Shown here piece after piece: positions 15,374 through 58,948 of a stretch of 64,000 nucleotides of DNA (the stretch's first letter is position 1; each line of letters opens with the position of its first letter). A program made the position numbers and the translations under genes. Source of the DNA: a virus; the IMG/VR virus record IMGVR_UViG_3300027917_002335, positions 35,502 through 99,501 of that record; one strand, given 5' to 3'. The notes beneath the pieces were generated by a model. The model saw nothing but the letters and a program-made list of their open reading frames with translations. It did not search any database and had not been told where the DNA came from.

Positions 15374-15387
15374 TTTAAATTTTAACA

Positions 15388-15734: not shown

Positions 15735-15893
15735 ATGTGTAAACACAAATGGAGAATCTTGGAAGAATTCGTTCGTGATTCTACTCGGTTCGTGAAATGG
15801 ATTTGCCAAGATTGTAGAACAACAGCGGAGCGGGAAATTAAACCAAGGATGTGTCATCCTACTCCGCTGGTATTATTCGGAGGTGAGAAATGA
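15735..15893 (+). CDS. Zn-finger microprotein (C.HKW...CxxC)
   Basis: Hand translation MCKHKW...WICQDC...; AGGAGGT RBS; below the ORF track cut-off. Confidence 0.6.
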   Translation: MCKHKWRILEEFVRDSTRFVKWICQDCRTTAEREIKPRMCHPTPLVLFGGEK

Positions 15894-16030
15894 ATGTGGG
15901 ATACAAGTTCTTTCTTACTCGGAATGATAGCAGGAATCTGGACTCTTGGAGGACTTATTTGTTTAAAACTCGCACTCGATATTTGGAAAATTAAAAGAGA
16001 AACCAAAAAAGCTAGGAGGGAATATGAAGA

Positions 16031-16174
16031 ATGGAAGAAGAATCAGTAGAATATTGTAAAGGAGAACATAAATGGGAAGAAGTGTCCAGGACTAACAGAA
16101 TGGGAACTGAAATAGTTTTCCATCAATGCGCAGAATGCGGAATATTTAAAATGGAGGTAAAGAAGGATGATTAG
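16031..16174 (+). CDS. Zn-finger microprotein (C...HKW...CxxC)
   Basis: Hand translation MEEESVEYCKGEHKW...QCAECG; similar layout to 15735-15893. Confidence 0.55.
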   Translation: MEEESVEYCKGEHKWEEVSRTNRMGTEIVFHQCAECGIFKMEVKKDD

Positions 16175-16796
16175 AGAATTTTTCCAGGATCTAGTAAGCC
16201 TAGAATACATACTCGTAATACCCAATATATCTGATGAAGAAAAACTACGGCGAATATCAAAGGCAATCGTGGAAATTAAGAAGAAGTACAACAAACAATT
16301 GTTCGGGTGATTACAACGGAAGAATATTACGAACCAGAATACACTCCCGAAAGAGTGTGTTTTGAGTGTAGACAGGATTATCGCGGGATAGAACCGCCGT
16401 GCGATCAATGTAATCTGAATGAGGAGGAATAAATAATGAAGACAACAAGCTATATTGTGCGAATCACGACACCCGACTCCGAAGAATTTGACTCCGATCT
16501 CTTACAACAAATATTTTTTGATTGTCCCGAACTCGAAGACTGTCTAATAACCGTTAAAAAGGAGCCAATGAGATTGATAGATATATGCCTAATAGATGAA
16601 TCAGAATTGTCGGAAGATAAGAAAATAGAACACTGTGAATTAACCCTAATTTGTGAAGATTGTAAGTATTGCGACAAACAGGCTTACGAAAGAGCTTACA
16701 ATCACCTTAAATCAAAAGAGAAGGGAGATTGATTCTCTCTTACTCGCAATTTTTTTCCTTTCTAATTTTGGGAACCATTTCAACAACGAAAAAAAA

Positions 16797-19148
16797 TTAA
16801 ATTAGTAAATACTTTTCCCTTGTATCAAAATTCTTCATATACAATAAATCGAAGACATCCATAAATAACTCTTTAAAATCTCCCGCTATTGCTACATCAA
16901 TTAACAATTTCAAAAGCGTAGATGTTTTAACCATTCTTTTATCCTTTGCTGATTCACTTAATCTTCTATATCTTGCATCCTCTTCAAATGTTTTGGTAAA
17001 CTTCGGCCACATATCAATATCTTTCTTTAACGGTTCAAATACAATATAAGAATCCCTATATTCGTGAAATGTTCTATCTCCATACTTCGTCCATTTTCTT
17101 ACTGGAATTATATTTAGATTATTTGCCATTAATTTAGCTACTGAAACCATCGGTCTATGAATAATTACTCGTCTTCCATAAGTAGATTTACAAAATTCAG
17201 TAAGAGGCTTAATTAATAATCTCGTTAATTCGGTAGTATCATACACTAAATTCTTTCTTATATGCCATAATGTCTTCTTTGTTGAATCATACCTCTTTAA
17301 CCGTCTAGGCATATTATGTAGAGCCTTAATAGAAGCATGGTATTTCAAAGACAACGCTTTTTTATTAACCTCTTCGACCTCATCAGAGTCCAGAATCTTT
17401 TCAATTCCCAAAGTTTCTTCTACCAATGATTGTATGTCATCAGAGATTTCCTTCATCTTCTTTAGTTTTTCCTTCTTTATAAAATTAACAAGATAAGGTA
17501 TTTCTGCTTTACACCTAACTATTCCAGTATTTACTATCCTATAAACGGATTCAATAATGCTACTACTAACAGTTTCCAGAGGATCTTCTGACTCCAATCT
17601 TAATAAAACTGGTTCTAATGCTTTAAAAAGACTAGGTATCTTATATTTTGTTGCTTGGAAGAATATTTCTAAATCGGAATCTTTACATCCGCCAAACAAT
17701 TTCATGTGATTGCCCCCTGAGGATAATCCTCCATCTTTATTATATCTTACTTTATGATGGAAGCTACCCCACAAAGATAAATACTCGTTTTTCTTATGCT
17801 CTTTCTGTAATTGTTGTATACTTCCTACTCTCTTTTTAGGTGGAAAATATATCTGATAAGGGTTAATGGTTCGATATGTAAAGCCGTCAGAATTAAATGG
17901 ATTATAATCTTTCTGAGCAGATAATCCAGTTAATTTCAATTTACTACAAAAAATAGCGTAATTCTGAGACATTCTAAATTGTGTGTTTATATCAGAATAA
18001 TATGGAAAATCAAAGTCGATCAGCACCTCAGCTTCGATTTCTAAGGGTTTTTTCGAAAGCCAACAATCTATTTTGTTTTCTAATCCTCTAATTGTCTTTT
18101 CGTTAAACCATTTTTTTGGAGCACAATAGTCGTAAATAAGATAGAACTTATTGCCTGTTGAGCCTGTTTTATATATCTTGACATTTGGATTCTCTTCCAT
18201 ACTCTTCCATAAATCCATAGCTCTTTTCTTTCCTTGTTTATATGTTAAATCAACTGTAATTGTATTAAGATTAAAATCCTTTATATCTAAACAATCTAAC
18301 TCTTCCATATAATCTAAGCAAACACTAGGTTCTCTGATTAATTTTGTTATATCGTCTCTTGCGCTGTAAAATTCATCAGGCACATGACCATATTTCTCAT
18401 ACAAAACAAATGCTTCAAAGTCTTTCCTTAATTGTTTGAGATACAATTTAATCATTTCGTCTTCCACTATGAATTTATTGTCAATTATATATTTTTTTAC
18501 ATCGTCCGAAATTTTCGCCGATTCGAGATGCGAAAGGACCGTTGATTCTAATTTTACCAAATCTTTTTTAACATCTGCCTTCTTCCGTCTTGAGGCTCGG
18601 TTAATAATTGGATCGGATAATCTAACCATCTCTTCTCTCAGGTATTTATGATACTCCAACAAGTCTACTAACTCATAAGCATCTTGGTTAATTTCTTCAT
18701 AGCTTTTGTTTTTCTTCTTTATTCTATCATACCAAACTTCTTCGCTTGTCAATACCTTCTCATCTTTAATGTATTTATAATTGTCTATTAACCACATTGG
18801 AATATAAGTTTTTATTCTTTCATCAATACATCTTTCTACGCATTTAATTGCGTGATCGACTATTTTCTGAAAAGAAGCAACTTTCTTATTGTTCTTAAAT
18901 TTGTACCTTAGTTGTTTCTCTAACTCGTATCTAATAAGATTCTTGACATTATCAATAGACAAAACTCCTAGTATCTTCTTACTTGATCTTTTAGTAAATG
19001 TATCAAAAAAGAAATCACAAGAAATTTTCGAACCATCTCTTAACCATTCGTTTATGATTTTTTTGATAGTTGCCTTATTACCAGCCATGATTTTCTTTGA
19101 AAGTTTGTCCAGCTCCTCATCTGGTATCTTCTTCATCTTTAGTTTCAA
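16797..19148 (-). CDS. large basic hypothetical protein (783 aa)
   Basis: Long ORF counter to the local gene direction; no motif recognised. Confidence 0.8.
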   Translation of the reverse strand: MKLKMKKIPDEELDKLSKKIMAGNKATIKKIINEWLRDGSKISCDFFFDTFTKRSSKKILGVLSIDNVKNLIRYELEKQLRYKFKNNKKVASFQKIVDHAIKCVERCIDERIKTYIPMWLIDNYKYIKDEKVLTSEEVWYDRIKKKNKSYEEINQDAYELVDLLEYHKYLREEMVRLSDPIINRASRRKKADVKKDLVKLESTVLSHLESAKISDDVKKYIIDNKFIVEDEMIKLYLKQLRKDFEAFVLYEKYGHVPDEFYSARDDITKLIREPSVCLDYMEELDCLDIKDFNLNTITVDLTYKQGKKRAMDLWKSMEENPNVKIYKTGSTGNKFYLIYDYCAPKKWFNEKTIRGLENKIDCWLSKKPLEIEAEVLIDFDFPYYSDINTQFRMSQNYAIFCSKLKLTGLSAQKDYNPFNSDGFTYRTINPYQIYFPPKKRVGSIQQLQKEHKKNEYLSLWGSFHHKVRYNKDGGLSSGGNHMKLFGGCKDSDLEIFFQATKYKIPSLFKALEPVLLRLESEDPLETVSSSIIESVYRIVNTGIVRCKAEIPYLVNFIKKEKLKKMKEISDDIQSLVEETLGIEKILDSDEVEEVNKKALSLKYHASIKALHNMPRRLKRYDSTKKTLWHIRKNLVYDTTELTRLLIKPLTEFCKSTYGRRVIIHRPMVSVAKLMANNLNIIPVRKWTKYGDRTFHEYRDSYIVFEPLKKDIDMWPKFTKTFEEDARYRRLSESAKDKRMVKTSTLLKLLIDVAIAGDFKELFMDVFDLLYMKNFDTREKYLLI

Positions 19149-21368: not shown

Positions 21369-21776
21369 ATGACAGAAGAAAAGAAAGAATCAATAATGGA
21401 CAAAGAAGTTGAAGACTTTTTTGAAAAATATAAAGAACAAACCAATAAGATGCAAGGTTTGTTTTTCCATTTTGGTAGATTTTATCAAGTCTACACTCAA
21501 GTACCATCACAAGCTATGGCAATCCTCTACGAAGAGATTTTTAAAGTTCACGAAGCACTACTCGGAACTTTTTTGGAAGAAGAAAAAGAAAAATTCCAAA
21601 AGATTAAAGACACAATGAAAGAATCTCTTACTACATTAATTGGATTGATTGATAAATTAGATCCAGAAGAAATGAAAGAGGAATGTAAAGCTAGGTTAGA
21701 TGTTATTAAGAAAGCTATACCTCTGATGGAAGAATTTTTCAAAAAAGAACAACGAAGAGATAATCTTTATATTTAG
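21369..21776 (+). CDS. helical hypothetical protein ending in LYI
   Basis: 135-aa coiled/helical ORF. Confidence 0.65.
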   Translation: MTEEKKESIMDKEVEDFFEKYKEQTNKMQGLFFHFGRFYQVYTQVPSQAMAILYEEIFKVHEALLGTFLEEEKEKFQKIKDTMKESLTTLIGLIDKLDPEEMKEECKARLDVIKKAIPLMEEFFKKEQRRDNLYI

Positions 21777-22389
21777 GTGATTTTTTTGACATTTAAAGGA
21801 AAAATTACTCATGTTCCGCCAGTACTCTTGGACTTAAAAACATATTTTCAGAGAGAAATTCGAACTGCAAAAGCATGTAATTGGCGGGAAGATGGAAAGT
21901 GGTATATTTGGATTAATTTAGATAAAATTCACGGTAACAGCAGTTTAAGGAAGATTGTAGAAGATATTAATGATCTCTACATACAAGAATTACTCTGCGT
22001 TATAATACGAGGAAATACTGTAGGAGAAATTCCTCCCTGTGAAAGTGATGAATTTACTGCTAAAGTATATTGTTCTTGTTATCAACCAAGAATGTTTTTA
22101 AAAATAAGTGAAAAATTATGACTCATTTAAAAAAAGTTAGTAGAGAAGATCCAATGTTCTCAGGCAGAGCAATCTATTTTCAACCAATTTTGAAAGATGG
22201 TTCACCTGGTATTCCAGAAAAAATAGCAGATGTACCAGATAATGACATTATTTGTGACGGTTGTAATAATCTAATAGAAGATGACGAAGTTTACCTTCTT
22301 ATTCTCCAAGAAGGAGATGAAGAGCCTAGAATTTGGGGAACTCAATGTAAAGAATGTGTTGAAGAATACTATTCTGAGCTTGAAGTAAA

Positions 22390-28188: not shown

Positions 28189-29235
28189 TTGTATTGCCCA
28201 GAATGCGGAAAAGAAAGCGCAAGTGAATATGTTTGTACTAATTGTGGATTAGTATTTGAAGATAAACCTATAACAAATCAACCACCTATTTCACCTGAGA
28301 GCGAGGTAATCAGAGGTGGGAAGTTTAGATCCAAGTATCTTAAGGATCTACTCTCTCCCACCAAAATTAATTTAAAACATGTAAATGACGATATGAAGAG
28401 AATCCTAAAAAAGAATACTCCGTTTTGGGATTTGAAAAGAACATTAATCATTCACAATGAAATCAAACGATTATGTTGTTTATTAAATTTAAATAAAAAT
28501 GTAGAAATAAGTTGTGTTTATTATCTTAATAAGATTAAGTCTAAGAGTAAAGAACTTGGATTTTCTCTATTCAAAAAAGGAGGAAGTTCACTCGAAAAAA
28601 TTGCTCACGCTATTGTTTTCTTAGTAGCCAGAGTAGAAGATTTACCACTTACTCTATATGATTTTGAAAGAATTGGATTAGATAAAAAGGAAGTATACAA
28701 ACAATATTCAAGGTTAAAGAGAGATTTAAAGATAAGATTTAAACCAACCGACGCAAGTGTTTATATTAATAAAATTTTAAAACAATTAGATTTACAAATA
28801 AGAGATGAATCATTGTTGTCTTTATGCGCCACTTCATTTATAATGAAAGTTGGTGTCTTAGAAGAATTAACAACTCATCCTCTTGGATTTAGAAATCAAA
28901 TTGTTAAAACAGCAGCAGTTATATATATGCTTGGAGGAAGTGTTTATCGTATTACTCAAAAAGAAATTTGTAATATAGTGGGATGTAATACACATGCACT
29001 ACGAAATAGAATTGAAGAAATAAAAGATTTGCTTTATAAGGTTGGTAAAATTCGTTTTGAAGATAAACACTGGAGAAAATTTAATAAAGAATATAAGCCG
29101 TTTATTGATAATATGTCGAAAATACTTGAAAGACCAAAATACTTTATAAGTGGTTTAGTAGATTTAAAATATCAAATGGAAATAACCAAAGCATTCAAAG
29201 GAATTATAGAATTGGAGTTTAAAGATGCTAGTTAG
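28189..29235 (+). CDS. tfb: transcription factor B (TFB/TFIIB)-like protein
   Basis: N-terminal Zn ribbon CPECG...YVCTNCGLV, two cyclin-like repeats, C-terminal HTH ITQKEICNIVGC...LRNR. Confidence 0.85.
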   Translation: MYCPECGKESASEYVCTNCGLVFEDKPITNQPPISPESEVIRGGKFRSKYLKDLLSPTKINLKHVNDDMKRILKKNTPFWDLKRTLIIHNEIKRLCCLLNLNKNVEISCVYYLNKIKSKSKELGFSLFKKGGSSLEKIAHAIVFLVARVEDLPLTLYDFERIGLDKKEVYKQYSRLKRDLKIRFKPTDASVYINKILKQLDLQIRDESLLSLCATSFIMKVGVLEELTTHPLGFRNQIVKTAAVIYMLGGSVYRITQKEICNIVGCNTHALRNRIEEIKDLLYKVGKIRFEDKHWRKFNKEYKPFIDNMSKILERPKYFISGLVDLKYQMEITKAFKGIIELEFKDAS

Positions 29236-31061: not shown

Positions 31062-31220
31062 ATGTATGAAAGAAAAATGTGCCCTATGTGTGGAGCAGTG
31101 GGAAAAGATTTAAGAGAAGTAGAAGATAGAAGACCAAGTAGAAGAATGTATAGAATTTCTACTGGAACTTTTATGTATCCTAAAAAGAATTATTGTAAAA
31201 AATGCGGGTATGAATGGTAA
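31062..31220 (+). CDS. Zn-ribbon microprotein
   Basis: Hand translation ...CPMCG...LREVEDR...KKNYCKKCGYEW. Confidence 0.6.
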   Translation: MYERKMCPMCGAVGKDLREVEDRRPSRRMYRISTGTFMYPKKNYCKKCGYEW

Positions 31221-31663
31221 TGAGCTTACAAAGATTTATGGATGGAGTTTTTGAAGGAATTTGGGACACAAAAGATTTCAAAACAGATAAGTTTATTGCG
31301 TGGGATATAGGTTCGGAGATTGTAATTAATCGGAATTTTTTTCCCGATGATATAAGAATTTATACAGAATATAAAACAGTTCAAATGGTTTATTCTTATA
31401 AAACTGGCGTATGTATTGAATGGAACGGAAACTATTTCTTTGCTAATATGATAAAGAAATATATTGAAGAAGGATTTCAAAACAAACCTGTTGAAATAAG
31501 ATTTTTTAGGGCTGGTTTAGTTTATATGGAGTTTAAGATAGATGAAACTTACTCCTTTGTTGTTCAACAAATTATGGATTACGATGGTAAAGGAGATTTA
31601 AAACCAATACCATTTGACAAAGTATTTAAAAATGTAACAATTTCAAGTGATATGGAATTATGA
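31214..31663 (+). CDS. hypothetical protein with C-terminal DMEL tag; paralog of 51662-52129
   Basis: Ends ISSDMEL; shares GN.FF...I...E..F.N..VE...FK.DE.Y with 51662-52129. Confidence 0.75.
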   Translation: MVMSLQRFMDGVFEGIWDTKDFKTDKFIAWDIGSEIVINRNFFPDDIRIYTEYKTVQMVYSYKTGVCIEWNGNYFFANMIKKYIEEGFQNKPVEIRFFRAGLVYMEFKIDETYSFVVQQIMDYDGKGDLKPIPFDKVFKNVTISSDMEL

Positions 31664-36479: not shown

Positions 36480-37113
36480 ATTTGTAACTCCTCACGCCAT
36501 TAAATACAAGGCTCGTGAAAAGCTAATAATGGAGAGAACCAAAGCTGGTCATAGAGGACCTATTGGAGCTATTCGTCTAACTGCTGATAGAACTGTTGAG
36601 GCTTTTCTTGATTACTTTGATATGTTAGGCTCAGATGGTTGGATTTATTCTGGAATTTGTGAAGATCCAGATCTTCCCTATGGTGGGGTTCATGTATTCT
36701 ATAAATGGGTTGAAGACGATGGTTTTAAATCAACCATTGAAGAACCAGAAATTATAGATGAACAACCTCTTTCTGCTTCTGAAGTTTATGAAAGAGAAAG
36801 AGAGAGACAAGAACTTTTAAAACAAACAACCGATCCTAGACAAATATCGGATGCAAGATTAAATGCTGAGATGATGGCACGACAAGAACCAATTAAGGAT
36901 TTAGATGAAGATAGCGATATCTTAGAAGAATTAGATTATGCAGTTCATCACGAAGAAGTTATGGAAGACGAAGATCCAAAGAAAATTAGGTTTGAATTAT
37001 ACAAACAGTATGAAGAAATCAATCCTAATAAGAAAGCTGTTTTTAGAGGCAAAGAAACACAAGGATTTACAGAATGGTTGGAATCACAACAGGAAAAATG
37101 GGCTAAAAAATAA
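36460..37113 (+). CDS. hypothetical protein with C-terminal A(V/I)xRG..T..F.EW microdomain
   Basis: 217-aa ORF; motif shared with 43013-43285. Confidence 0.7.
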   Translation: MKRIVNRFVTPHAIKYKAREKLIMERTKAGHRGPIGAIRLTADRTVEAFLDYFDMLGSDGWIYSGICEDPDLPYGGVHVFYKWVEDDGFKSTIEEPEIIDEQPLSASEVYERERERQELLKQTTDPRQISDARLNAEMMARQEPIKDLDEDSDILEELDYAVHHEEVMEDEDPKKIRFELYKQYEEINPNKKAVFRGKETQGFTEWLESQQEKWAKK

Positions 37114-38090
37114 TGAACCTTGATGTGAAATACCGTCCGAGAACCTTTAAGGAATTTAAAGGCAACGAACGGATTATTAGGGATATAAAAGCCTTACTCA
37201 AAGTTGGAGATTTACCACACCTTATGTTTGTTGGACCTCCAGGAACTGGTAAAACAACACTAGCACTTCTTATTGCTCGAACAGTATTAGGAAGACCTAT
37301 TCATATTAATACTCGTGATGGCGATCCAGATTTTAAAGAGTTAAATGCTTCTAGTGCAAGAGGAATAGATGTTGTAAGAGAAGTAATAGAAGAATACGCT
37401 AGGGTTAAACCATTAGAAGGTACTCCTTATAGATTTATTTTATTAGATGAAATAGATTCTTCTACTCAGGAATTTCAACACGCCCTACGACCTGTTATTG
37501 AAAAGAATGAAGATAGATGTAAGTTTATTCTATGTTTAAACAGGATTCAAGGAATAAAAGAACCAGCTTTAATTTCTAGGTGTGCAACATTCTTTTTTGA
37601 AAAGCCTAATACTGATGTAACAGCTAGCTTGTTACTTGAAATAGCTGAGAAGGAAGGAGTTAAATTTGAGGATGAACAATTAGCTTATGATGTAGCAGAA
37701 TATTATGAAGGAGACTTGCGCCATATTCTCAACGATTGTTTAGAAACATTAAGAGGATATGATGAGGTAATAACTAAAGATCATTTATGGAAAGTCTATG
37801 AGAAAAATGGAAAATCAGTTGCTTCAAGAGTATATGAATCTGAAAATCCAAAGGAAGAATTCTTTACAATATATAGGAAAGAAGCCTTTGATGTTAGAGA
37901 GTTTTTGGAAGAATATTTCAAGCTCTTAGGAGATAAAGGGATTCCGCACTCGAAAGAGATTTCCAAGATAGACGCAAGAATTAGAAATTATTGTAATGTA
38001 CCAATACAAATGAGTTATTTTTTCTCGTTATTTGAAAACGAAGGTGAAAAAGAGGATGGAATTAAGACTAAGTTTAAAAAACCCTTCTGA
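37113..38090 (+). CDS. rfcS: replication factor C small subunit
   Basis: KYRP, GPPGTGKTT, ELNAS..RGIDVVR, LDEID, ALISRC and GDLR. Confidence 0.95.
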   Translation: MNLDVKYRPRTFKEFKGNERIIRDIKALLKVGDLPHLMFVGPPGTGKTTLALLIARTVLGRPIHINTRDGDPDFKELNASSARGIDVVREVIEEYARVKPLEGTPYRFILLDEIDSSTQEFQHALRPVIEKNEDRCKFILCLNRIQGIKEPALISRCATFFFEKPNTDVTASLLLEIAEKEGVKFEDEQLAYDVAEYYEGDLRHILNDCLETLRGYDEVITKDHLWKVYEKNGKSVASRVYESENPKEEFFTIYRKEAFDVREFLEEYFKLLGDKGIPHSKEISKIDARIRNYCNVPIQMSYFFSLFENEGEKEDGIKTKFKKPF

Positions 38091-39198: not shown

Positions 39199-40527
39199 AT
39201 GGAGCTAGATTTACACACAAAGAAAGTTTTAGAAAATTTAGCTAAGTCTTTTGAGAAAGATTTCTCCAAGGTGGTTGAACTTTTTGAATATGCACGGGAG
39301 AAAATCGCTGAAGAGACAGGCAAGAAAGAGCCCAAACTTAGCATCGCTGCTATACATGTAACAAGGGCTAAGCTAACAGAGCTTCAACAAGAAACTGGAA
39401 AAGAAATAAATATTATTATATTTGGAAAAGATCCTAGTAGAGATTCCAATGCTTCACTACGAAAACAGATTCTTGCTGACTTCTGGAATAATCCAGAATC
39501 AAGACGAAAAGTCGTTGAGCAAGGAAAAGTTATGGTAATGAAAGCAGGTAAGGGAGATCCTACTAAAGATTTTCATTCAGTTTATAAGCCTGTTACAAAG
39601 ATTATAGAATCAGTAGAAGTTGACGGAGAAACAGTCGTAACAAAGGGAGAGATTTGGGATCCTGCATTGGTTATCGATCCTATTTGTAGAGACTTTAGAA
39701 AGTTCTTAGATGATGACGAGAATGTAGAGAATTGGAATTATACCAAACCGTTATTAGAGAATTGGCGTACTACTTATTTTGGAATTGGTTATTTTGAAGA
39801 CACTCCAGATCTAACCAAGAAAGTTCAACTAAGATTTTTTGGTGATAGTGCTGATCCTCATAGTGGACAATTTGTAGGTAAACGAATTGATTTCTTTATT
39901 CCATATAAAGTGAAAGTAACAGTAAATGAAAATTTAAGCACAGAAGATTGTTATTCTGTATCTGCTAAAAATGTTCCTGTTCCATCTGGAGATGTTGATA
40001 TTGACATTATAGCAATGTTAGAAGCAATTAACACAATGCATAGAGCCAGATTAGAAGCAAAAGGAAAGAAACCATTAGATTTAATTCCTATTGTTGATAT
40101 GGCTGATTTAAAGAAATGGCATTTAGAACGCAGAGCTAGGAAAGATGTTGATGGAAACATAATGAAATCAGATTCCGGCTGGGATTTAACAAATTGGGAT
40201 GAATATTGTGTCATAGATCAAGTTACCTATCTTGGTTTGAGAGAATTTTCAGAAGGATACAAACCAGCAGTACTTCAACACGATTCAACTGGTAGGCGTT
40301 CTTTCTTTGTTAATTATGACAACGATATTAATATGAATGTTCCTGTACCAGCAGATATATTGATTTGTGTTAAGACTGGAAGAGGTCTATCTTCTTATGA
40401 TAGAGAATCAAGAACCAAAGTAGAACTTTCTGACGATCCAGATTTGTCAATTAACATTTGTGGATTGAAAACTTTAGAGAGTTATGAGAAGATTATCTTT
40501 CCAAAAGAGGTTACTGGTGACTTGTAA
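39199..40527 (+). CDS. hypothetical protein, possibly ssDNA-binding (OB-fold) protein
   Basis: Lies between RFC and the ATPase/clamp/PolB genes; helical N-terminus then beta-rich; function inferred from context only. Confidence 0.4.
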   Translation: MELDLHTKKVLENLAKSFEKDFSKVVELFEYAREKIAEETGKKEPKLSIAAIHVTRAKLTELQQETGKEINIIIFGKDPSRDSNASLRKQILADFWNNPESRRKVVEQGKVMVMKAGKGDPTKDFHSVYKPVTKIIESVEVDGETVVTKGEIWDPALVIDPICRDFRKFLDDDENVENWNYTKPLLENWRTTYFGIGYFEDTPDLTKKVQLRFFGDSADPHSGQFVGKRIDFFIPYKVKVTVNENLSTEDCYSVSAKNVPVPSGDVDIDIIAMLEAINTMHRARLEAKGKKPLDLIPIVDMADLKKWHLERRARKDVDGNIMKSDSGWDLTNWDEYCVIDQVTYLGLREFSEGYKPAVLQHDSTGRRSFFVNYDNDINMNVPVPADILICVKTGRGLSSYDRESRTKVELSDDPDLSINICGLKTLESYEKIIFPKEVTGDL

Positions 40528-40829: not shown

Positions 40830-41825
40830 ATGAGCTTCAGTAAATTTACCAAACCTGCAGTACATGTTGATGATGAAGAATTAAAGAGAAGTATTTCTTA
40901 TAAGAAGATTCAACCTGATGCAAAGTTTGGTCTTAATATAGCTCTAATTGCGCCTGCTGGATTTGGAAAAACTCTCATGTCTACTGCTTTTGGCTATTTC
41001 AATTCAAAGTATATGGATAGATTGGACAAGGAGAAATTTCCTTACTCCATTCGTTTGTTAAAGGAAGGACACATGTCAGAAGTAGAGAAGATTGTTATCC
41101 ATGATTTAGATAATGGATACCACAAAGCAATGTCTCGTGGAACATTTAAGAGGATATTAGAACCTTTAGTTCCTATAATAGATGTTGTTGAGTTTGATAT
41201 TCCAGAAAGGGATGTAGAAGTTGAATTAGGAAAAACAAAATCTGTAAGAATAGATGAACTTTTAAAAGCAAAGAGAGAAGTAGAAGACGCGGCTAAAGCA
41301 GCAGTTGCTGATTTTGGCTCAGAAGTTTTATGGATAGTAGATTCTCTTAGTGAATATTACCAAGTCCTGGACTCTATGTTCTCTATTGTCTATGAAGCAG
41401 TCTATGATAAAGAAGTTGGTTCTCGTGTGGAGAATCAGAAAGACTGGCAAATCCGAAACGCTTGGTGGAATGAATATATGAAGCGTAAAAGGAAATATAA
41501 AGGATGGCAAATAGACAATGTTAAAGCAGTACCAATTCCACCTCATTGGGTTAAGAAAAATGATCCAGATCCATACAACATTAAATGGGCTGAAGGAAGT
41601 GGAGGCAATGCTTTTAATTTAGACCAAGTTTATAGATTACATAAAGACGCTGAAGGATTTCCTTATTTCAACTTAATAGATGGAAGATATAAAAGTAAGA
41701 TAGCAACAGATAATATAGAGCTATATTATGCGTATGACAAAAGAGATGTTGCTTTCTATATAATAGAACACATAGCAAAATATATAATTGAAGGATCAGA
41801 AATAAAAGAGGAAGAACTATGGTAG
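40830..41825 (+). CDS. RecA/Sak4-like P-loop ATPase
   Basis: Walker A APAGFGKT, HDLDNG and Walker B WIVDSLS. Confidence 0.7.
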   Translation: MSFSKFTKPAVHVDDEELKRSISYKKIQPDAKFGLNIALIAPAGFGKTLMSTAFGYFNSKYMDRLDKEKFPYSIRLLKEGHMSEVEKIVIHDLDNGYHKAMSRGTFKRILEPLVPIIDVVEFDIPERDVEVELGKTKSVRIDELLKAKREVEDAAKAAVADFGSEVLWIVDSLSEYYQVLDSMFSIVYEAVYDKEVGSRVENQKDWQIRNAWWNEYMKRKRKYKGWQIDNVKAVPIPPHWVKKNDPDPYNIKWAEGSGGNAFNLDQVYRLHKDAEGFPYFNLIDGRYKSKIATDNIELYYAYDKRDVAFYIIEHIAKYIIEGSEIKEEELW

Positions 41826-46994: not shown

Positions 46995-47131
46995 TACCAG
47001 ATAATGTATGTATTTTATGTGGCAAAAGAGGATATTGTATAGATTTCAAGGAAGGTTCTTATGATATATATAGATGTCCTTATTGTAAAAGATTTTGGAC
47101 TATAATGGTAGATAAAAATGAAGATTCTTAA
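46991..47131 (+). CDS. Zn-finger microprotein
   Basis: Hand translation MIPDNVCILCG...YRCPYC; ATGA overlap with the polB stop. Confidence 0.6.
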   Translation: MIPDNVCILCGKRGYCIDFKEGSYDIYRCPYCKRFWTIMVDKNEDS

Positions 47132-47789
47132 TTTATTCGCAGGAATAGGAGGAAATCGTGCTCTATGGGGAGACGAGCACGAAGTTACAGCGGTAGAACA
47201 TGACGATAGAATTGCTCGAATTTACAAAAGAAGATACAAGAATGATAGAGTAATTATTGCGGATGCTTATGATTACTGTCTTTGGTTCTATGATGAATAT
47301 GATTTCATTTGGGCTTCCCCGCCTTGCCCTACTCACTCTATTACCAACAATTTTCTACATGCTCAAGGTGTAAGGAGATATCCAGATATGAAACTCTGGC
47401 AGTTAATTATCTTCTTAAAATACTATTCAACTTATAATAATAATAATATCAACTGGGTAGTAGAAAATGTTAAAACCTACTATGAACCTATTATAAAACC
47501 ATCATTCATACTGGGCAGGCATTACTTCTGGTCTAATGTCCATATACCTAGGAAGAAGTATGAATACTCTACAATTACAGTTACTAATGTGAAATCTGCT
47601 ACAAGAAGAGATAATTGGGAATACTTAGCAGAGTTAGAAAAATATTTAGGAATTAAATTAGCTGATGATGTAACTGGAGAGAGAAGAAGACAATTATTAA
47701 GAAACTGTGTTAAGCCAGAAATAGGAAAATATATATTAGATTATATTATAGAAGGACCTAGTGAGATAAGTAATGATATGGAGTTATAG
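47118..47789 (+). CDS. compact DNA cytosine-5 methyltransferase, C-terminal DMEL tag
   Basis: NLFAGIGG, SPPC, ENV, R..FWSN and RNCV; ends ISNDMEL. Confidence 0.9.
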   Translation: MKILNLFAGIGGNRALWGDEHEVTAVEHDDRIARIYKRRYKNDRVIIADAYDYCLWFYDEYDFIWASPPCPTHSITNNFLHAQGVRRYPDMKLWQLIIFLKYYSTYNNNNINWVVENVKTYYEPIIKPSFILGRHYFWSNVHIPRKKYEYSTITVTNVKSATRRDNWEYLAELEKYLGIKLADDVTGERRRQLLRNCVKPEIGKYILDYIIEGPSEISNDMEL

Positions 47790-48067
47790 AAGTAGGGAAA
47801 ATTTATTTAATAAGATAATGGTAAAGATAAGAAAAATTCTTTACTTTGTGTTGAAATTAGATATACATAAGAAATATGAAGCTGATAAAGATATTCAAGG
47901 ATTTATCCCGCTTCTTTCTTATAATCCAAAAACAAAATTTTATAGATTTAATTGTTATTGCAGAACTTGTCCTTGTAATTTTAAAGGATTATGTAGTACA
48001 CATTTCTATTCTATTCCGTATGTGTTATTACATGAATTTGATGGTGATAACATAATAAAAAATTTTT

Positions 48068-48625
48068 GTGGTTAATATGTATGATGAATGGAATAAAATA
48101 AAAGCAAAATGCCGTGACAGTGTAGTGGTAGATAAAGTGTTGTTCGAATCAAAATCTATTGAGTGGGGTACTCCTCAATGGTTATTTGACGAACTAAATG
48201 AAGAATTTGATTTTGTCTTAGATCCTTGTGCTAACGAAGAAAACCATAAATGTGAGAAATGGTATTCAAAAGAAGACAATGGTCTATCACAAGATTGGTC
48301 TATCTATAAAAGGGTTTTTATGAATCCTCCTTATGGAAGAGTAATAAAAGATTGGATGAAAAAGGCACACGAAGAATATTTGAAAGGAGCTACTGTTGTT
48401 TGTCTTGTTCCAGCAAGAACTGATACACAATGGTGGCACGACTATTGTATGAAAGCAACTGAGATTAGATTTATCAAAGGTAGGTTGACATTTGAAGGAG
48501 GAAAGCATTCTGCTCCTTTTCCATCAGCGATTGTCGTTTTTCAATTGAGAGATTATCCAAACTTTTTTGGAGAAGTAAGTAGATTTATTAAGAATAATGA
48601 AGTGAGATGCAGTAAATATGGGTAA
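48068..48625 (+). CDS. phage-type DNA N6-adenine methyltransferase
   Basis: W.TP, LDPCA, DNGL..DW, NPPY, LVPARTDT and GRL.F. Confidence 0.92.
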   Translation: MVNMYDEWNKIKAKCRDSVVVDKVLFESKSIEWGTPQWLFDELNEEFDFVLDPCANEENHKCEKWYSKEDNGLSQDWSIYKRVFMNPPYGRVIKDWMKKAHEEYLKGATVVCLVPARTDTQWWHDYCMKATEIRFIKGRLTFEGGKHSAPFPSAIVVFQLRDYPNFFGEVSRFIKNNEVRCSKYG

Positions 48626-49484
48626 TTGGATACAATCATTATTAGGATGGTATGGAGGAAAATATAATTTATTGGATTATATTTTACCTTTCCCAAGACA
48701 CACAACTTTTGTAGAAGTATTTGGAGGCAGTTCTGTTGTTTTGTTTAATAAGATACCCTCTGAAATAGAAGTTGTTAACGATATAAATTCACGATTAATT
48801 AATTTCTGGAAGACAATTCAAGAAGCACGAAGAGAATTTGTAGATTATTGTAAGAATGAAGGAGGAATAGATAGTCGTGCCTTATTCGATGAGTATAGAG
48901 AAAAGGCAGATAAGAAAGTAGAAGATGCTTTTAGATTATATTATGTAAATCATCACAGTTTTTCACAAATGAATAATGCTTATCATGGAATTTCATTTAC
49001 AGGAAGAGAACAATGGCATTCTCCTTATCTAAATAAATTGGAGCATATAGACGAATATTATAAGAGAATAAAACATGTGCAATTTGAATGTCAAGATTTC
49101 AGAAAATTATTAAAAAGATGTGATAGAGAAACGGCTTGTATTTATTTAGATCCTCCTTATTTTACAGGAGGAGAAGTTTATGAATATATGGCTGGAATAG
49201 AAACAGGCTGGAATCAACAAGATTTTGTAGATTTAAGAACACTATTGAAAGATATTAAGAAAGCTAAGTTCGTTCTTAGTATAGACGAGAAAGATTTTTG
49301 GTTAGAAGAAATGCCAGATTTATATGTGCAACCAATAGAGAGAGTTAATAATGCTTCTCTATCTATAGGTGAAGAGAAATCTAGGAGTATAGAATATGTG
49401 ATTAGAAATTATAATCCAAGAACTACTCCGACTATGAGAACTATGGCTGGTAAAAATAAAATAAAAAACGATATGGAATTATAA
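48618..49484 (+). CDS. Dam-like (D12 class) DNA adenine methyltransferase, C-terminal DMEL tag
   Basis: WYGGK, FVEVFGGS, VNDIN and YLDPPY; ends IKNDMEL. Confidence 0.92.
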   Translation: MGNWIQSLLGWYGGKYNLLDYILPFPRHTTFVEVFGGSSVVLFNKIPSEIEVVNDINSRLINFWKTIQEARREFVDYCKNEGGIDSRALFDEYREKADKKVEDAFRLYYVNHHSFSQMNNAYHGISFTGREQWHSPYLNKLEHIDEYYKRIKHVQFECQDFRKLLKRCDRETACIYLDPPYFTGGEVYEYMAGIETGWNQQDFVDLRTLLKDIKKAKFVLSIDEKDFWLEEMPDLYVQPIERVNNASLSIGEEKSRSIEYVIRNYNPRTTPTMRTMAGKNKIKNDMEL

Positions 49485-50468
49485 TGGGAGTTTATGATAC
49501 ACTACCAAATGGTAGTCAGGTTAAATGTTGGGGAAGTATGATGAGAATGCTTGATGTAGGCTCTAAAGTAGGAAAACTAGGAGATAAGAAAGACTATATT
49601 GTTTTACTACGAGAAGGCGGATATGTAAAAGTGATTAAGAAAAAGATTGTTAAAATTTCTAGTCATAGAGAAAAGAAATGTCCTTGTGATTTCAAACTAC
49701 CTGTGTTTGATAAATGGGGAGATAGAGTTTATTGTATGAACGATTTACATGGACTATTAGGTCCTTACGATATAGAGGATAAATATTATTATTGTGATAA
49801 TTAAATGCTAACCGCAGAAGAATATTTTAAACAAGAACGAGAAAAAGCAGAGATAAAAGCAAAAGAACGAGAAGAAAAATGGACAAAAGAAATCATGGAA
49901 GAAATAAAAGAATGGGATTCTGATAAGCTAGAAGATGAATACATCAAACTAAGATTGTCAAGAATCTCTTATTACGATCCTATTACGCCTGGAATGGCTT
50001 GGGATTTATTCCATGAAGAATGTAGATTTTGTGGCTTAGAATATATTCAAGGAGAACACAACGATTGTTGTGATGATTGTTGGGAAGAAAATAAAGATAA
50101 AACTTTAAGTGATTTAGAAAATGGCTGAAGAAATAAATAATATATTGGATGCATTAGTAGATGATTTTAGGTATGTATTAGATCTTGCTATCGAATGGAT
50201 GGATGATCCAAAATCATTCGAGCCAGATTATAGAAAACTAAATGAATTATTAGATATTTTTGATAAGTGGTTTAAATGAAATTGAACAACATATTAAAGG
50301 AATTGGCAACAGTCAAAGACTTGTTGCTACAAAAATATGGAGAAGTAGAAGAACTTCGAGAAATGAATGAAAATCTTAGACAATTAAACGCTAGATTATC
50401 TAAACAAGTAAAAGATTTAAAAGAGCATAGCGCTAAAGTAGAAAAAAATAACAAGATGTTGAAGGAGC

Positions 50469-51209
50469 ATGTACAAGGAAAATCCGAAGACAAAGGGTAG
50501 TGGAATATATGCTGTAATTCCGCAAACAGGTCATTGTCCTAACAATTGTGATGATTGTTTCTTCCAATCAGGTCGTTCTTTCTTAGAACCTTTGGATGAG
50601 AATTTACCCAATCTTTACGATTATAAATATCTTGAAGAAATGTATAGTAAAGTGTTTAGGATAAATGATGGAAACGATAGTAATGTTGACAGAGAAACTG
50701 TTATGGAAAAGACAGGCAAATATCTGTTGAAATTCTATAATACTGCTATCCCAAGAGACTTAGAAGAGTTTGATGCTCCATTTGTTTTGACTATAAATCC
50801 GGGGTTTATGACTGATAGAAGTTGGCATAAACTTATAGAGATTCCAAAGAATTTAATGTTTGTAAGAATAAGAACGAACTGTTGGAATTTAGAACAAGTT
50901 GTCAAACCAGCGGTGAAATACTATACTGAGAAAGAAGTACCAGTTGTATTAACATTCATGGCTTACTTTGATACTCCTATTCCAGAAGGATATGAAGATG
51001 ATTATATATTTAGAAAGAGAACTCTTAACTCTTACAATGCTATAACTACACAAGCATGGGAAGAGATTATGAGAATGTTTAAATATAATGCTTATGTATA
51101 TTCTTGTGGAAAGATTGAAGGAGAAAAAGGAACAACCAAATGTGCCAGATGTGGTAATTGTATAAGAGAATTTTTTGTTACAATGGAACGAATGAAAGAT
51201 GAGTTATAA
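50469..51209 (+). CDS. radical SAM-like protein
   Basis: CPNNCDDCF (CxxxCxxC) plus C-terminal CARCGNC. Confidence 0.7.
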   Translation: MYKENPKTKGSGIYAVIPQTGHCPNNCDDCFFQSGRSFLEPLDENLPNLYDYKYLEEMYSKVFRINDGNDSNVDRETVMEKTGKYLLKFYNTAIPRDLEEFDAPFVLTINPGFMTDRSWHKLIEIPKNLMFVRIRTNCWNLEQVVKPAVKYYTEKEVPVVLTFMAYFDTPIPEGYEDDYIFRKRTLNSYNAITTQAWEEIMRMFKYNAYVYSCGKIEGEKGTTKCARCGNCIREFFVTMERMKDEL

Positions 51210-51696
51210 TAGACGAATAGAAGAAGGATATAAAAAAATAGGAAAAAAATTAGATAAAGACGGCAATATTATGAAAAAAATTTATTTTGCTCATCCATTT
51301 GACAAATGGAATAGCAAACGAGAAGAAATGATAGAGCAAACATTATCAGAGAGAGGTTACGAAGTTATAAATCCTTTCAAAGAAGAGGATAGACTAAACG
51401 AAAAATATGGCGTTAATAATTACTACGAAGATCCAACCTATGAATTTGCCAGAGATATAGTTGACAAGGATTATCAGATGGTCAAAGATTGTGATGAATA
51501 TTTTGGTTGGTTTCCAAAAGATGTCACAATGATTGGTACTCCACTTGAACTGGCTTGGGCAAAAGATTTAGGTAAAAAGATTACAGTGCTTTGCTACAAA
51601 CCACAACCTTTCTTATGGATGTATGCTGATATATTTTATATAGGATACGACAATTTTAAAAATGATGTTAGATTCTACGATAAAGAAGTTCATTGA
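51199..51696 (+). CDS. nucleoside 2-deoxyribosyltransferase / dNMP N-glycosidase family
   Basis: KIYFAHPF, VINP, D...V..CD and GT..E..WA..LGK. Confidence 0.8.
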   Translation: MSYNRRIEEGYKKIGKKLDKDGNIMKKIYFAHPFDKWNSKREEMIEQTLSERGYEVINPFKEEDRLNEKYGVNNYYEDPTYEFARDIVDKDYQMVKDCDEYFGWFPKDVTMIGTPLELAWAKDLGKKITVLCYKPQPFLWMYADIFYIGYDNFKNDVRFYDKEVH

Positions 51697-52129
51697 ACTA
51701 TTTGGAGAATGTTTGGAAGACGATAAGAAAGACTTGCAAGAGTATGTTGTGCAAGCCTCCGCTTCTAGGATAGAGGGTATTATAGAGTTGAAAGGATTTT
51801 ATAAGACACATACTCCAAATGAAACATTTTATAGTTTTGCAGATTTACCAAGAATTATTGAGAAAAAGAATCAAGTTGTGGCTCTTGGTAATAAATTCTT
51901 TCCTTATGAAAGAGTTAGGCAAGTGTTAGAAAACTTCTTTGTTAATAATGTCGAAGTAGGTCTCTATCATGGAAAAGGAGCTTCTGCTCTTGTGTTTAAA
52001 CTTGATGAAGAATATGGAATTATGATGGCAAATAAAGTAGAGAAAGAAAAGAAAGATCCCAATGAAGTATTATATAGGTGGGATGATTTATTTTTCCACA
52101 AAAGTTTTGGAGATGATATGGAATTATGA
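51662..52129 (+). CDS. hypothetical protein with C-terminal DMEL tag; paralog of 31214-31663
   Basis: Ends FGDDMEL; shared central motif. Confidence 0.75.
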   Translation: MMLDSTIKKFIELFGECLEDDKKDLQEYVVQASASRIEGIIELKGFYKTHTPNETFYSFADLPRIIEKKNQVVALGNKFFPYERVRQVLENFFVNNVEVGLYHGKGASALVFKLDEEYGIMMANKVEKEKKDPNEVLYRWDDLFFHKSFGDDMEL

Positions 52130-55602: not shown

Positions 55603-56151
55603 ATGGATAAAGCAGTTTGTATATGGTTTTTTGGTTTGTCTGGAGCAGGAAAAACAACAATTGCAGATAAACTTAAAGATGAATTTTTAGTAAGAGGATT
55701 AAAAGTTGAAAGATTAGATGGCGATATTGTAAGAGGAGCCTTAACAAGAGACTTAGGATTCTCTATTGAAGATAGATTTGAACACATAAGAAGAGTTGTG
55801 TTAGTAGCAAAGATGTTAATTAAGAACGGAATTAATGTTATAGCTTCTTTTATTACACCATTAAGAGCTATGAGGTATTATATTCAACAAGAGCTTGGAG
55901 ATAAGTGTTTACTTGTTGAGTGTCAGTGTGATATACATACTTGTATGGAACGAGACATAAAAGGATTATATAAAAAGTCATTAAATGGAGAAATAAAAGA
56001 TTTTACTGGATTAACACAACCTTATGAAGAAGGAGAAGGAGAAGTGTTTTGGTTCTTAAACACAAATTCTTATGAGCCAAATGACTCATTAAAAGATTTA
56101 TTAGAAACATTTAAAAGTTTTAAAGTATTTGAGTATTTGATGGAAAAATGA
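55603..56151 (+). CDS. cysC: adenylylsulfate (APS) kinase
   Basis: WFFGLSGAGKTT, LDGD.VR, LGFS.EDR, RD.KGLY and FTG..QPYE. Confidence 0.95.
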   Translation: MDKAVCIWFFGLSGAGKTTIADKLKDEFLVRGLKVERLDGDIVRGALTRDLGFSIEDRFEHIRRVVLVAKMLIKNGINVIASFITPLRAMRYYIQQELGDKCLLVECQCDIHTCMERDIKGLYKKSLNGEIKDFTGLTQPYEEGEGEVFWFLNTNSYEPNDSLKDLLETFKSFKVFEYLMEK

Positions 56152-56915
56152 TCGTTATAGATGTTGGGGAACCTCCAGAAGTATTTGAAATGTTTGAGAA
56201 GAAAGGAATACCTTATGTTAGAGCAGAAATAAGAATGTTCTATTGTGCTGATTGTGAAAAAGTTTACATACACCAACCTGAAACATGTGAATGTGGTTCT
56301 GATGATATAAGAGCTGATAGAGTAGGTGACTTCACTAATACAGATAGAACATGGGTTATAGAAAGAAAGACAGAATCAGATTTTGTTGGTTCTATGCTTG
56401 ATAAGTCTTTACATGCTCAAGCAGCAAAGATGGCTAAATATTATTCTGGATGGAAATTTGTTTTTCTTCAAGGATTTATATCTGTTATGGTAGATGATCC
56501 TCATCATAAAGGAAATATAAAACCTTGGATAAGATCAATGAGAGTGACATTAAGAAAGTACGATGTATGTATGTGGCAATGTGATGATTTAAGTCAGTTA
56601 GTCGATGAGGTTTTTAGAGTTGAACAAAAAGCTGGAGAACAACCAAAGATATATGATAAGATAGATGATAAATATAAAGGATGGTCAGATTCTAAGAAGT
56701 TTATTTGTAAATTGATTGATGTATCAGATAAGAAAGCTGATATATTATTACAAGAATTTGGTAATCCAGTGGGAGTTCTTGAAGCCATACTATCAAGTGA
56801 AGCCACTTTTACTAGAACTGGCAATCCAAAAGGAGTTATTGGTCCTATGGAAAGTGTAAAGGGTTTCGGTCCCAAATTTATAATTAAAAATAAGAAGATG
56901 TTATATGGAAGCTGA
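56148..56915 (+). CDS. ERCC4/XPF-family structure-specific nuclease with Zn-ribbon insert and HhH
   Basis: GDF...IERKT..DF..S core; CADC...CECG insert; C-terminal VKGFGPK. Confidence 0.85.
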   Translation: MIVIDVGEPPEVFEMFEKKGIPYVRAEIRMFYCADCEKVYIHQPETCECGSDDIRADRVGDFTNTDRTWVIERKTESDFVGSMLDKSLHAQAAKMAKYYSGWKFVFLQGFISVMVDDPHHKGNIKPWIRSMRVTLRKYDVCMWQCDDLSQLVDEVFRVEQKAGEQPKIYDKIDDKYKGWSDSKKFICKLIDVSDKKADILLQEFGNPVGVLEAILSSEATFTRTGNPKGVIGPMESVKGFGPKFIIKNKKMLYGS

Positions 56916-57097: not shown

Positions 57098-58948
57098 TTG
57101 GAGACAGTTAGAAACATAATTGCACAAGAATGTACAGATTTTGTGCGTTATGGTAAAGGAAATCTAGTGTATAGAACATTCACAGGTTCAGGCAAAACAA
57201 CTACAGTATTAAAGACACTGTATGAATCTAAGGATGGATTTAGCTGGATGTACTTTGCACCCTATCACAAAGTAATACAAGAGAATATGGAATTGTCAAA
57301 AGTGATAGAGTTTTCTAATGATTGGATTCATTTATTATCTCGAAAGTATTTATGCTTGGATAAAGACTTTAAAAAATTGACAAAACATGGTGTAAATATT
57401 CAACCTTTTTGTGAGAATTTTTGCACACTAAAAGATACTCGTTGTCCTTATTATGAGAATCTACGAAAGTTAAGAGACTATCCTTATTGCTTTGCTGGTG
57501 TTCATGCTCACATTCCAACATTATTACAAAAACTATTATTTGAGAAATGGAAAGGAAGAATGTTCTTTTCTTATTATGATGTCATTGTAATAGATGAGTT
57601 TCCTTATAGTTCTATTTATAGCCAATTGTCATTAGGAAGAAAAGACATAGCTAAACAAATAGATGTTTTAGATTTAATGGGGTTGGGCGGTAGATTAGAC
57701 CATGTAATAAGATATTTATTAGAAAGATTACTTCTTTCTGTTGATAGCGCAAAAGGATTAGACTATGATGATTTAGAAAGAGTCTTAACAGAAGCAAGAG
57801 GATTAAATGTAGATACATATAAGGAAGAATATGACTTACAAATGTTAGAGTTGGTTAGGAAGAAGAAAATTAAAAATCCACCTAAGGATATCTTACATTA
57901 TTTATTGGAAATTCTTAAAAGACATCCTTCGAGAGACAAATTAGAATGGATGATTCACAAGACAGTAGAAACTTCTTGGCACAATTCGAAATTATATCTT
58001 ACAATTTCTAATATACCACACTTTAAGAATTTACCTAATAAAGTTATAGCATTAGATGGCACAGCAGATTTACCTATTTGGAAAGCAATATTAGGAGAAG
58101 ATACAACAGCAATAACATTTGATTTACAATATAAAAATATGTACCAAATGATTGGTGCAAGAAATCCTACAAGTACAATAGTAAAAGCAGGAGAATTTTC
58201 TCCTTCTGGTGTGAGATTATATGAGATATTAAAAAGAATTTGTGAATATAAGAAAAGAAAATATAAAGTATCGGGTTATAAAGTAAAAGAAGTTAAAGTT
58301 TTAATTTGTTGTAGTTATAGGATACAAAAATTATTAGAAAAAGAATTTAAGAAGGATAAAGTAACAAATTTTGAGTTTGCTACTTTTTATAATTTACGCT
58401 CACGAAATTCATATTTCGAAGACTGTGACACTTGCGTTGTATTCCACGAGCCAAATATACCGCCGTTCCAAACAGAAATAATAAAGAATGTCCTGGACTT
58501 TGATTACGACACAATTAGATTAATTCATAGAGAAGACGAAATGAAACAAGGGATTGGTAGAGCAAGACAAAATATACCGGTAACTCCACAAGGAAGAAAG
58601 AGAGAGAAATTACGGGAGATATTTATATTCTCTTCTACTGGGTATAAGAAATTATTTCCAGAAGCAAGATACATGACTTACGAAGATATGCTTTCTTATG
58701 TGACAGGAGGAAAAAAGAGATTATATTTTGATACAGTCAGAGATTTTATAACAGAACATACACCAATTTCAAAGACAAAATTAGGAGAACATTTAGATTT
58801 ATCATACACAAAAGTAGATAGACTAGTTAGTATATTAGAAAAAGAAGGAGATGTAAAAGTAGAATGGGGCAAAATCACATGGATCAAGCCTCCTACTTTA
58901 GAGGATGAAGAAAGATATTTAATAAAAATAGGAGGCGTAGCATGGTAA
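57098..58948 (+). CDS. SF2 helicase, XPD/DinG-like Fe-S cluster, C-terminal wHTH
   Basis: TGSGKTT, SRKYLC...C...C...CPYY, VIDE and QGIGRAR. Confidence 0.75.
   Translation: METVRNIIAQECTDFVRYGKGNLVYRTFTGSGKTTTVLKTLYESKDGFSWMYFAPYHKVIQENMELSKVIEFSNDWIHLLSRKYLCLDKDFKKLTKHGVNIQPFCENFCTLKDTRCPYYENLRKLRDYPYCFAGVHAHIPTLLQKLLFEKWKGRMFFSYYDVIVIDEFPYSSIYSQLSLGRKDIAKQIDVLDLMGLGGRLDHVIRYLLERLLLSVDSAKGLDYDDLERVLTEARGLNVDTYKEEYDLQMLELVRKKKIKNPPKDILHYLLEILKRHPSRDKLEWMIHKTVETSWHNSKLYLTISNIPHFKNLPNKVIALDGTADLPIWKAILGEDTTAITFDLQYKNMYQMIGARNPTSTIVKAGEFSPSGVRLYEILKRICEYKKRKYKVSGYKVKEVKVLICCSYRIQKLLEKEFKKDKVTNFEFATFYNLRSRNSYFEDCDTCVVFHEPNIPPFQTEIIKNVLDFDYDTIRLIHREDEMKQGIGRARQNIPVTPQGRKREKLREIFIFSSTGYKKLFPEARYMTYEDMLSYVTGGKKRLYFDTVRDFITEHTPISKTKLGEHLDLSYTKVDRLVSILEKEGDVKVEWGKITWIKPPTLEDEERYLIKIGGVAW

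Follow-up and report, generated by a model that had tools for sequence, protein, structure and literature searches.

A C-terminal tail shared by two DNA methyltransferases and the DNA polymerase of a magrovirus-like virus

Coupling of DNA methylation to the sliding clamp is textbook knowledge for eukaryotes, where DNMT1 is the example. Clamp clients carry short docking peptides: archaeal PolB, the large subunit of replication factor C (RFC-L) and Fen1 bind PCNA through a PCNA-interacting protein (PIP) box with the consensus QxxhxxAA, bacterial β-clamp-binding motifs include QL[S/D]LF and QLxLxL, and the gp43 polymerase of bacteriophage T4 has a C-terminal clamp tail. The T4 proteins gp33 and gp55 have C-terminal clamp-binding tails with an LDFL motif (PMC9690074), and two DNA methyltransferases, DNMT1 of eukaryotes (PMC9690074) and AMT6 of Tetrahymena (PMC11761967), are recruited by PCNA. 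Here we describe the right-hand 64 kb (the window; bases 35502–99501) of a 99.5-kb virus contig (IMG/VR record IMGVR_UViG_3300027917_002335, G000 in our set), in which two methyltransferases encoded downstream of a split DNA polymerase gene (polB) end in the same four residues, DMEL, as the catalytic half of that polymerase, a clamp-loader-like ATPase and two small proteins. In the literature that we searched, we found no description of a link between a methyltransferase and the clamp in phages or archaeal viruses, nor of a T4 methyltransferase as a client of the T4 clamp gp45, and we know of no such T4 enzyme.

Across the 158 open reading frames (ORFs) of the 99.5-kb genome (approximately 31,900 residues), DMEL occurs six times, and in all six cases it forms the last four residues of the protein. 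Because only 0.0017 C-terminal occurrences would be expected (Poisson P of approximately 4e-20), this tag is far beyond chance. All six carriers also have a hydrophobic residue at position −7, so that the full motif reads [V/I/F]-x-x-D-M-x-L-COOH. The codons of the tag differ among the copies (GAA or GAG, TTA or CTG, AAT or AAC) and all three stop codons are found, indicating that selection acts on the peptide and not on the DNA. We propose, with a probability that we put at about 0.65, that the tail docks its carriers on a sliding clamp encoded by the virus and that, held there, the two methyltransferases methylate viral DNA while it is being made.

The arrangement is close to that of the T4 gp45 clients, as in both cases a virus-encoded clamp of the trimeric type is accompanied by one hydrophobic and acidic peptide at the extreme C terminus of the polymerase and of other proteins, here PolB, the RFC-L-like ATPase, two methyltransferases and two small proteins. 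It departs from T4 in the motif itself, [V/I/F]xxDMxL without an aromatic residue, in having methyltransferases among the presumed clients, and in its setting, a probable archaeal virus with RFC- and PCNA-like parts. DNMT1 and AMT6 offer a second comparison: as with them, a methyltransferase of the 5-methylcytosine or N6-methyladenine type would be brought by the clamp to new DNA through a short linear motif. The eukaryotic enzymes bind cellular PCNA by a canonical PIP box, which is internal or N-terminal, for epigenetic maintenance, whereas the window virus has a non-PIP C-terminal tail, a private clamp and orphan viral enzymes that presumably act against restriction. With the archaeal PIP-box clients the tagged proteins share their classes (PolB and RFC-L), the C-terminal position of the motif and a modelled binding site at the inter-domain region and last strand of the clamp, but the tag has neither the glutamine nor the aromatic pair and may be orthogonal to the PCNA network of the host.

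The tag is conserved in relatives of the virus, which were retrieved by PolB and by the clamp. In a complete relative of 99,014 bp that was examined in full (G001, comprising L009–L014), an ending of the form DM[I/V]L is found on five proteins, each orthologous to one of the six carriers here (29–69% identity): PolB, the D12-class methyltransferase, the RFC-L-like ATPase (ending GDMVL) and the two small proteins, the 149-aa orthologue (34% identity) ending SDMVL. Orthologues of the 155-aa protein in four relatives (L001, L005/L008, L007; 29–34% identity) end SDMIL. Among the relatives, PolB orthologues end DMQL, DMIL or DMML, and DMKL endings also occur; position −2 is therefore free, whereas D(−4), M(−3), L(−1) and the hydrophobic residue at −7 are kept. 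No orthologue of the C5-like methyltransferase was found in G001 or in the fetched parts of the other relatives. Within one genome the −2 residue is uniform, being E in six of six tails here, I or V in five of five in G001 and I in three of three in G003. We also observed Q-K-N at clamp residues 264–266, the predicted contacts of the −2 residue, in the all-E lineage, and T-[G/S/K]-x in the other clamps, which are accompanied by I, V or another residue at −2; with seven lineages, too few to call, this covariation is only suggestive.

Three methyltransferase genes follow polB (Table 1). The first-pass annotation, made from the letters alone, had described them as solitary enzymes directly after polB and had read DMEL at the ends of the C5-like and the Dam-like (D12) enzymes but not of the phage-type N6 enzyme. 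All three genes lie where it had placed them, each has a Pfam match, partial in the C5-like protein, and the translations bear out the distribution of the tag. The D12-class N6-adenine methyltransferase matches PF02086 with 94.8 bits (cutoff 22), has an invariant DPPY motif (D178-P-P-Y181) and carries its tail behind a variable linker of approximately 15 residues. The C5-cytosine-methyltransferase-like protein is a member of a large family of short proteins (approximately 210 aa). Its match to PF00145 is confined to residues 1–76 (28.1 bits, cutoff 22), and TIGR00675 gives it 19 bits, the cutoff being 100; it matches the DNA methyltransferase family phrog_363 (E 7e-15) and contains motifs I (FAGIG), IV (PPC) and VI (ENV) as well as RNCV. 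A PDB sequence search with it returned no relative. The untagged Dam enzyme has an orthologue in G001 (65% identity) that is likewise without the tag. Among the neighbouring genes scanned with Pfam, PHROGs and NCBIfam, no restriction enzyme was recognised, the scan being non-exhaustive and the small ORFs at 49484–50500 lying outside it.

The tails of both tagged methyltransferases are limited to close homologues. Among D12 homologues with 56–87% identity, 15 of 16 have a variable linker followed by a terminal D-[M/I/L]-x-L, and the remaining one ends TDEIL; at 50% identity or less, none of 103 has the tail, named cellular homologues included. In an alignment of 17 D12 orthologues the linker varies and D285 (−4) and L288 (−1) are invariant. 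For the C5-like protein, the three closest homologues (at least 81% identity) are the only ones with the tail. In both families the globular domain stops at the same point, after which the tail follows. The first-pass annotation had asked whether the tail was a lineage-specific addition and had suggested that it was appended independently to two unrelated methyltransferase classes; both ideas gain support from tails that follow the end of the globular domain and occur only at 56% identity or more (D12) and at 81% or more (C5-like). A tail in cellular homologues, which it had named as the contrary case, was not seen among the homologues, with one partial exception: a C5-like homologue (P0178, 56% identity), on a 14,391-bp contig labelled as a metagenome-assembled genome of Candidatus Lokiarchaeota, ends IQKELEL. 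The residues of this ending are spaced as in the tag: −7 is hydrophobic, −4 is acidic, and −3 and −1 are both L. A genome scan with this protein yielded no cellular locus.

At the same C-terminal place, many homologues of both enzymes carry Q-anchored peptides that look like clamp-binding motifs (for example, QRTLF, QLGLF, QVSLEGF, QTGLF and QASLF). Such motifs are found in 32% of C5-like and 14% of D12 tails, the corresponding frequencies in internal windows being 5% and 1.8%, a 6- to 8-fold excess. A named case is Flavobacterium phage stinky9-1, with a protein ending NQVSIFDAIG. These QxxLF- or QxxLxxF-like endings, situated where DMEL sits in the window virus, recall the bacterial β-clamp motifs; they differ from DMEL in being anchored by Q and are presumably read by other clamps. 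Judged from these alignments, the C5-like gene was, the pattern suggests, re-tailed after its acquisition.

The window encodes a two-domain protein with the predicted fold of a PCNA-type sliding clamp. The ORF has no Pfam or PHROG match. An AlphaFold2 model built on a 43-sequence alignment, assembled by profile search, reached pLDDT 92.5 and pTM 0.88; from the single sequence pLDDT was 33, and the good model needed the enlarged alignment. It consists of two topologically similar beta-alpha-beta-beta-beta domains, and in Foldseek the top 50 listed PDB matches are all clamps, PCNA structures scoring TM 0.54–0.73 with probability 1.00. The nearest named viral model is L7TKG1 of the halovirus HVTV-1, an uncharacterised protein. 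A tblastn search of named phages with the clamp gave no match; genome scans with two distant clamps gave no viral loci, and a scan with the clamp alignment gave no cellular locus. The tagged ATPase resembles a clamp-loader large subunit in structure, as archaeal RFC large subunits are found at TM 0.50–0.56 in an Atlas structure search (model pLDDT 0.65). Its sequence scores lie far under family cutoffs (NF003231, 23 bits versus 442) and a PDB sequence search gave nothing useful. The two small tagged proteins, of 149 and 155 aa, are weak paralogues (E 8e-4).

We modelled clamp residues 1–296 together with a 30-residue C-terminal segment of the D12 methyltransferase (259–288), both supplied as alignments. 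The complex reached an ipSAE of 0.79–0.80 in three runs, with a partner pLDDT of at least 53 and contact agreement of at least 82%, whereas the best control, with the clamp-replaced control included, reached 0.00. In calibration the mark was attained by 58 of 80 solved complexes and by 2 of 110 mismatched pairs, figures that are approximate here because custom alignments were used. On the D12 side, confident contacts come from tail residues 280–288 alone. On the clamp side they involve residues 60–64, the inter-domain helix 139–146 and the last strand 285–290, including the invariant F60, K64, W143 and S288; among the pairs with the least predicted error are K64 with the tail aspartate, both invariant, and the invariant W143 with the tail methionine. 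The contacted elements would correspond to those that form the peptide pocket of PCNA. The model supports docking of the D12 tail on the inter-domain region and last strand of the clamp. Along with the PCNA fold and the presence of the tag on PolB and the RFC-L-like protein, this predicted complex favours the first-pass view of DMEL as a docking tag for the replisome or its clamp.

A parallel is found in HVTV-1, a cultured virus of Haloarcula vallismortis (Druskaviridae). Kazlauskas et al. (PMC4889955) drew attention to its divergent clamp, the product of gene 101. Seven of the 173 coding sequences (CDSs) of HVTV-1 end [V/P]-L-x-[F/W/Y]-COOH, versus approximately 0.3 expected, and all seven are within the replication module. 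They encode the polymerase (VLSW), the large clamp-loader subunit RFC-L (VLDF), a D12 methyltransferase (VLDF), a GNAT acetyltransferase, an HNH endonuclease, a DUF6610 protein and a 167-aa protein. The D12 enzyme, the product of gene 89, is homologous to that of the window (30% identity, E 1e-25) and is encoded two genes from the polymerase. In each virus, the homologous D12 methyltransferase bears the type of tail found on the polymerase and RFC-L of its own lineage, as a clamp-client tag predicts. The two viruses are alike in having one common C-terminal tail on the polymerase, RFC-L, D12 methyltransferase and small proteins, and in encoding a clamp; HVTV-1 differs in its VLDF-type tail and in its additional candidate clients, the GNAT, HNH and DUF6610 proteins.

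These observations allow us to propose how the tagged proteins could work. A loader made up of the RFC-S-like protein and the tagged RFC-L-like ATPase would set the clamp on primed viral DNA, and the catalytic half of PolB would be held to it through its tail. The D12 and C5-like methyltransferases, with their tails on flexible linkers, would take the same site on the clamp, either on free subunits of a presumed trimer or after the polymerase has left, and, once tethered, would slide with the clamp along the freshly made duplex. Contact with the clamp would probably stimulate their activity, and viral DNA would be methylated at the fork during synthesis, most plausibly as a protection against host restriction. 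If the tails work in this way, keeping protective enzymes on the replisome would close the window of vulnerability of nascent DNA, and would do so through the virus's own docking code.

The genomes bear marks of such restriction. The tetranucleotide ACGT is absent from the 99.5-kb genome, in which a Markov model predicts 128 copies, and GGCC occurs 13 times versus 63 expected. The relative G001 contains 272 ACGT sites and no CCGG (31 expected), and in the 21.7 kb of L002, where 17.5 ACGT would be expected, there are none. These counts suggest that a different restriction site has been purged by each virus. That the relatives wholly avoid different 4-mers points to restriction pressure that is strong and varied.

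Several observations nevertheless weigh against clamp-coupled methylation. The tag is not a canonical PIP box, because all six tails are without the glutamine and the aromatic pair of the definition Q-x-x-[L/I/M]-x-x-[F/Y]-[F/Y]. One of the three methyltransferases, the PF05869 Dam, is untagged; the substrate of the C5-like protein is uncertain, because PF00145 covers only its N-terminal third; and GATC is only slightly depleted (ratio 0.6). The docking model covers one of the six tails, that of the D12 enzyme, and its complex score is the model's own confidence, which may lean on the many solved PCNA–peptide complexes. The predicted interface is as conserved as the background (mean majority frequency 0.70 versus 0.71 elsewhere in the clamp) and, being no more conserved than the rest, adds no support. 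This last point, and the single complex model, would also fit a docking peptide for some other hub, for example a further component of the replisome (the 331-aa EEELW protein and the 442-aa GDL protein are candidates), a host factor or a replication compartment, with the clamp model a false positive; further proteins of the module have conserved C-terminal tails, and contacts through tails appear to be common here. We regard another hub as unlikely, as two of the tagged proteins, the polymerase and the RFC-L-like ATPase, belong to archetypal classes of clamp client, every control of the complex model scored 0.00, the one with a replaced clamp among them, and HVTV-1 has the same set of clients with a different tail. 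Tethering to the clamp might instead serve another purpose, by limiting methylation to viral DNA, marking the daughter strand for repair or packaging, or controlling clamp occupancy. At least one restriction enzyme has already been evaded by site loss (ACGT), the untagged Dam shows that methylation itself has no need of the tag, and PCNA-coupled methylation in eukaryotes is maintenance, not defence (PMC9690074; PMC11761967). In the window, however, no mismatch-repair genes were recognised, and the full avoidance of different 4-mers by different relatives speaks for defence. Orphan methyltransferases of viruses are, moreover, usually protective, and we consider a purpose other than protection improbable as well.

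A turnover or timing signal would put the tail to yet another use, as a C-terminal degron by which a protease or chaperone would co-regulate early proteins. It would suit a tag at the extreme C terminus, where the free carboxylate seems important, and a functionally mixed set of carriers of which two have no assigned function. Yet the module has no evident protease or adaptor, such a signal would be odd on a replicative polymerase and a clamp loader, and both the list of clients and the docking model indicate the clamp; a degron thus appears very improbable. At the DNA level, a gene-end cassette, translational coupling or a recombination scar might be suspected from the fact that four of the six stop codons overlap the next start as ATGA. 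We rejected such an origin of the common ending on the synonymous variation described above: in addition to the differing codons and stops, the hydrophobic −7 residue is encoded by unrelated codons upstream, and −2 varies freely among relatives whereas D, M and L are kept. The same holds for coincidence, given the expectation of 0.0017, and neither a DNA-level feature nor chance retains more than a negligible probability.

Set against what is known of clamp-coupled methylation, what is new here is a tail of the DMxL type, its setting in an archaeal virus and the parallel in HVTV-1. Should the tail indeed dock its carriers on the viral clamp, a wider idea can be put forward tentatively, at somewhat less than an even chance: archaeal tailed viruses with their own replisome might each use a private C-terminal 'clamp code' (DMxL in magrovirus-like viruses, VLDF in Druskaviridae), orthogonal to the PIP box of the host, that assembles a virus-only clamp tool belt in which DNA-modifying enzymes are regular members and acquired methyltransferases are re-tailed. 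The tag would then be a handle for finding replisome clients, such as the 149-aa and 155-aa proteins of the window and the GNAT, HNH and DUF6610 proteins of HVTV-1. In two distant virus lineages the methyltransferase and the polymerase of one virus have matching tails, a rule that offers a simple route to clamp clients in uncultured viruses; as HVTV-1 can be cultured, the idea is directly testable.

The virus is assigned to archaea because it encodes a TFB homologue together with XPF-like and XPD-like genes. The magrovirus architecture (PMC10768690) is matched here by the split PolB, TFB, RFC, PCNA, approximately 32% G+C and a length of approximately 100 kb. Together, these genes mark an archaeal virus of magrovirus-like layout. 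The contigs that yielded relatives are labelled WOR8 and similar samples.

Table 1. Features of the window and tailed CDSs of HVTV-1. Positions are those of the window, except in the last row.
Feature	Position	Strand	C-terminal residues	Evidence or remark
TFB/TFIIB homologue	28189–29235			zinc ribbon 30.2 bits (cutoff 29); NCBIfam TFB E 8e-15
149-aa protein	31214–31663	+	ISSDMEL	no family match
RFC-large-subunit-like AAA+ ATPase, 373 aa	33972–35093	+	FAGDMEL	weak AAA and clamp-loader matches
Clamp-loader small subunit (RFC-S/gp44-like)	37113–38090	+	untagged	phrog_5846 clamp loader E 1.6e-40; Pfam AAA and RFC lid
442-aa protein	39199–40527		GDL	no family match
331-aa protein	40830–41825		EEELW	no family match
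Two-domain PCNA-type sliding clamp, 313 aa	42070–43011	+	acidic tail	predicted fold
PolB exonuclease half, 425 aa	43440–44717	+	untagged	PF03104
PolB catalytic half, 558 aa	45318–46994	+	VSNDMEL	PF00136
C5-cytosine-methyltransferase-like protein, 223 aa	47118–47789	+	ISNDMEL	tail codons 47766–47786
100-aa Cys-rich ORF	47773–48075
Phage-type N6-adenine methyltransferase (PF05869 Dam), 185 aa	48068–48625	+	untagged	117.2 bits (cutoff 28.1); NPPY
D12-class N6-adenine methyltransferase, 288 aa	48618–49484	+	IKNDMEL	tail codons 49461–49481
Radical-SAM-like protein, 246 aa	50469–51209		MKDEL	not in tag set
155-aa protein	51662–52129	+	FGDDMEL	Atlas structure search uninformative
ERCC4-like (XPF-like) gene	56148–56915
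XPD-like gene	57098–58948
HVTV-1, seven tailed CDSs	L028 (NC_020158.1 30001–80000): 3803–4963, 12444–13697, 14172–15023, 15026–15523, 15517–18258, 18280–18576, 21706–22209	-	[V/P]-L-x-[F/W/Y]

Among the other genes of the module, the radical-SAM-like protein was considered for the tag set on account of its ending, MKDEL, and set aside, as RMKCE or RMRND stands in that place in its orthologues. At the end of the 331-aa protein, LW follows a stretch of acidic residues (EEELW, EEDLW or DEDLW), which resembles the tip of the single-stranded DNA-binding protein (SSB) type, and the ends of both this and the 442-aa protein are conserved in all relatives, the most distant (L025) included. A 46-aa ORF and the conserved 100-aa Cys-rich ORF are interspersed between the PolB catalytic half and the methyltransferases. 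The Cys-rich ORF, between the C5-like methyltransferase and Dam, begins within the DMEL codons of the former. It is 78% identical to a protein encoded at L023:5921–6226, where it is sited between the two PolB halves, and is thus a small gene that shifts position within the replication module.

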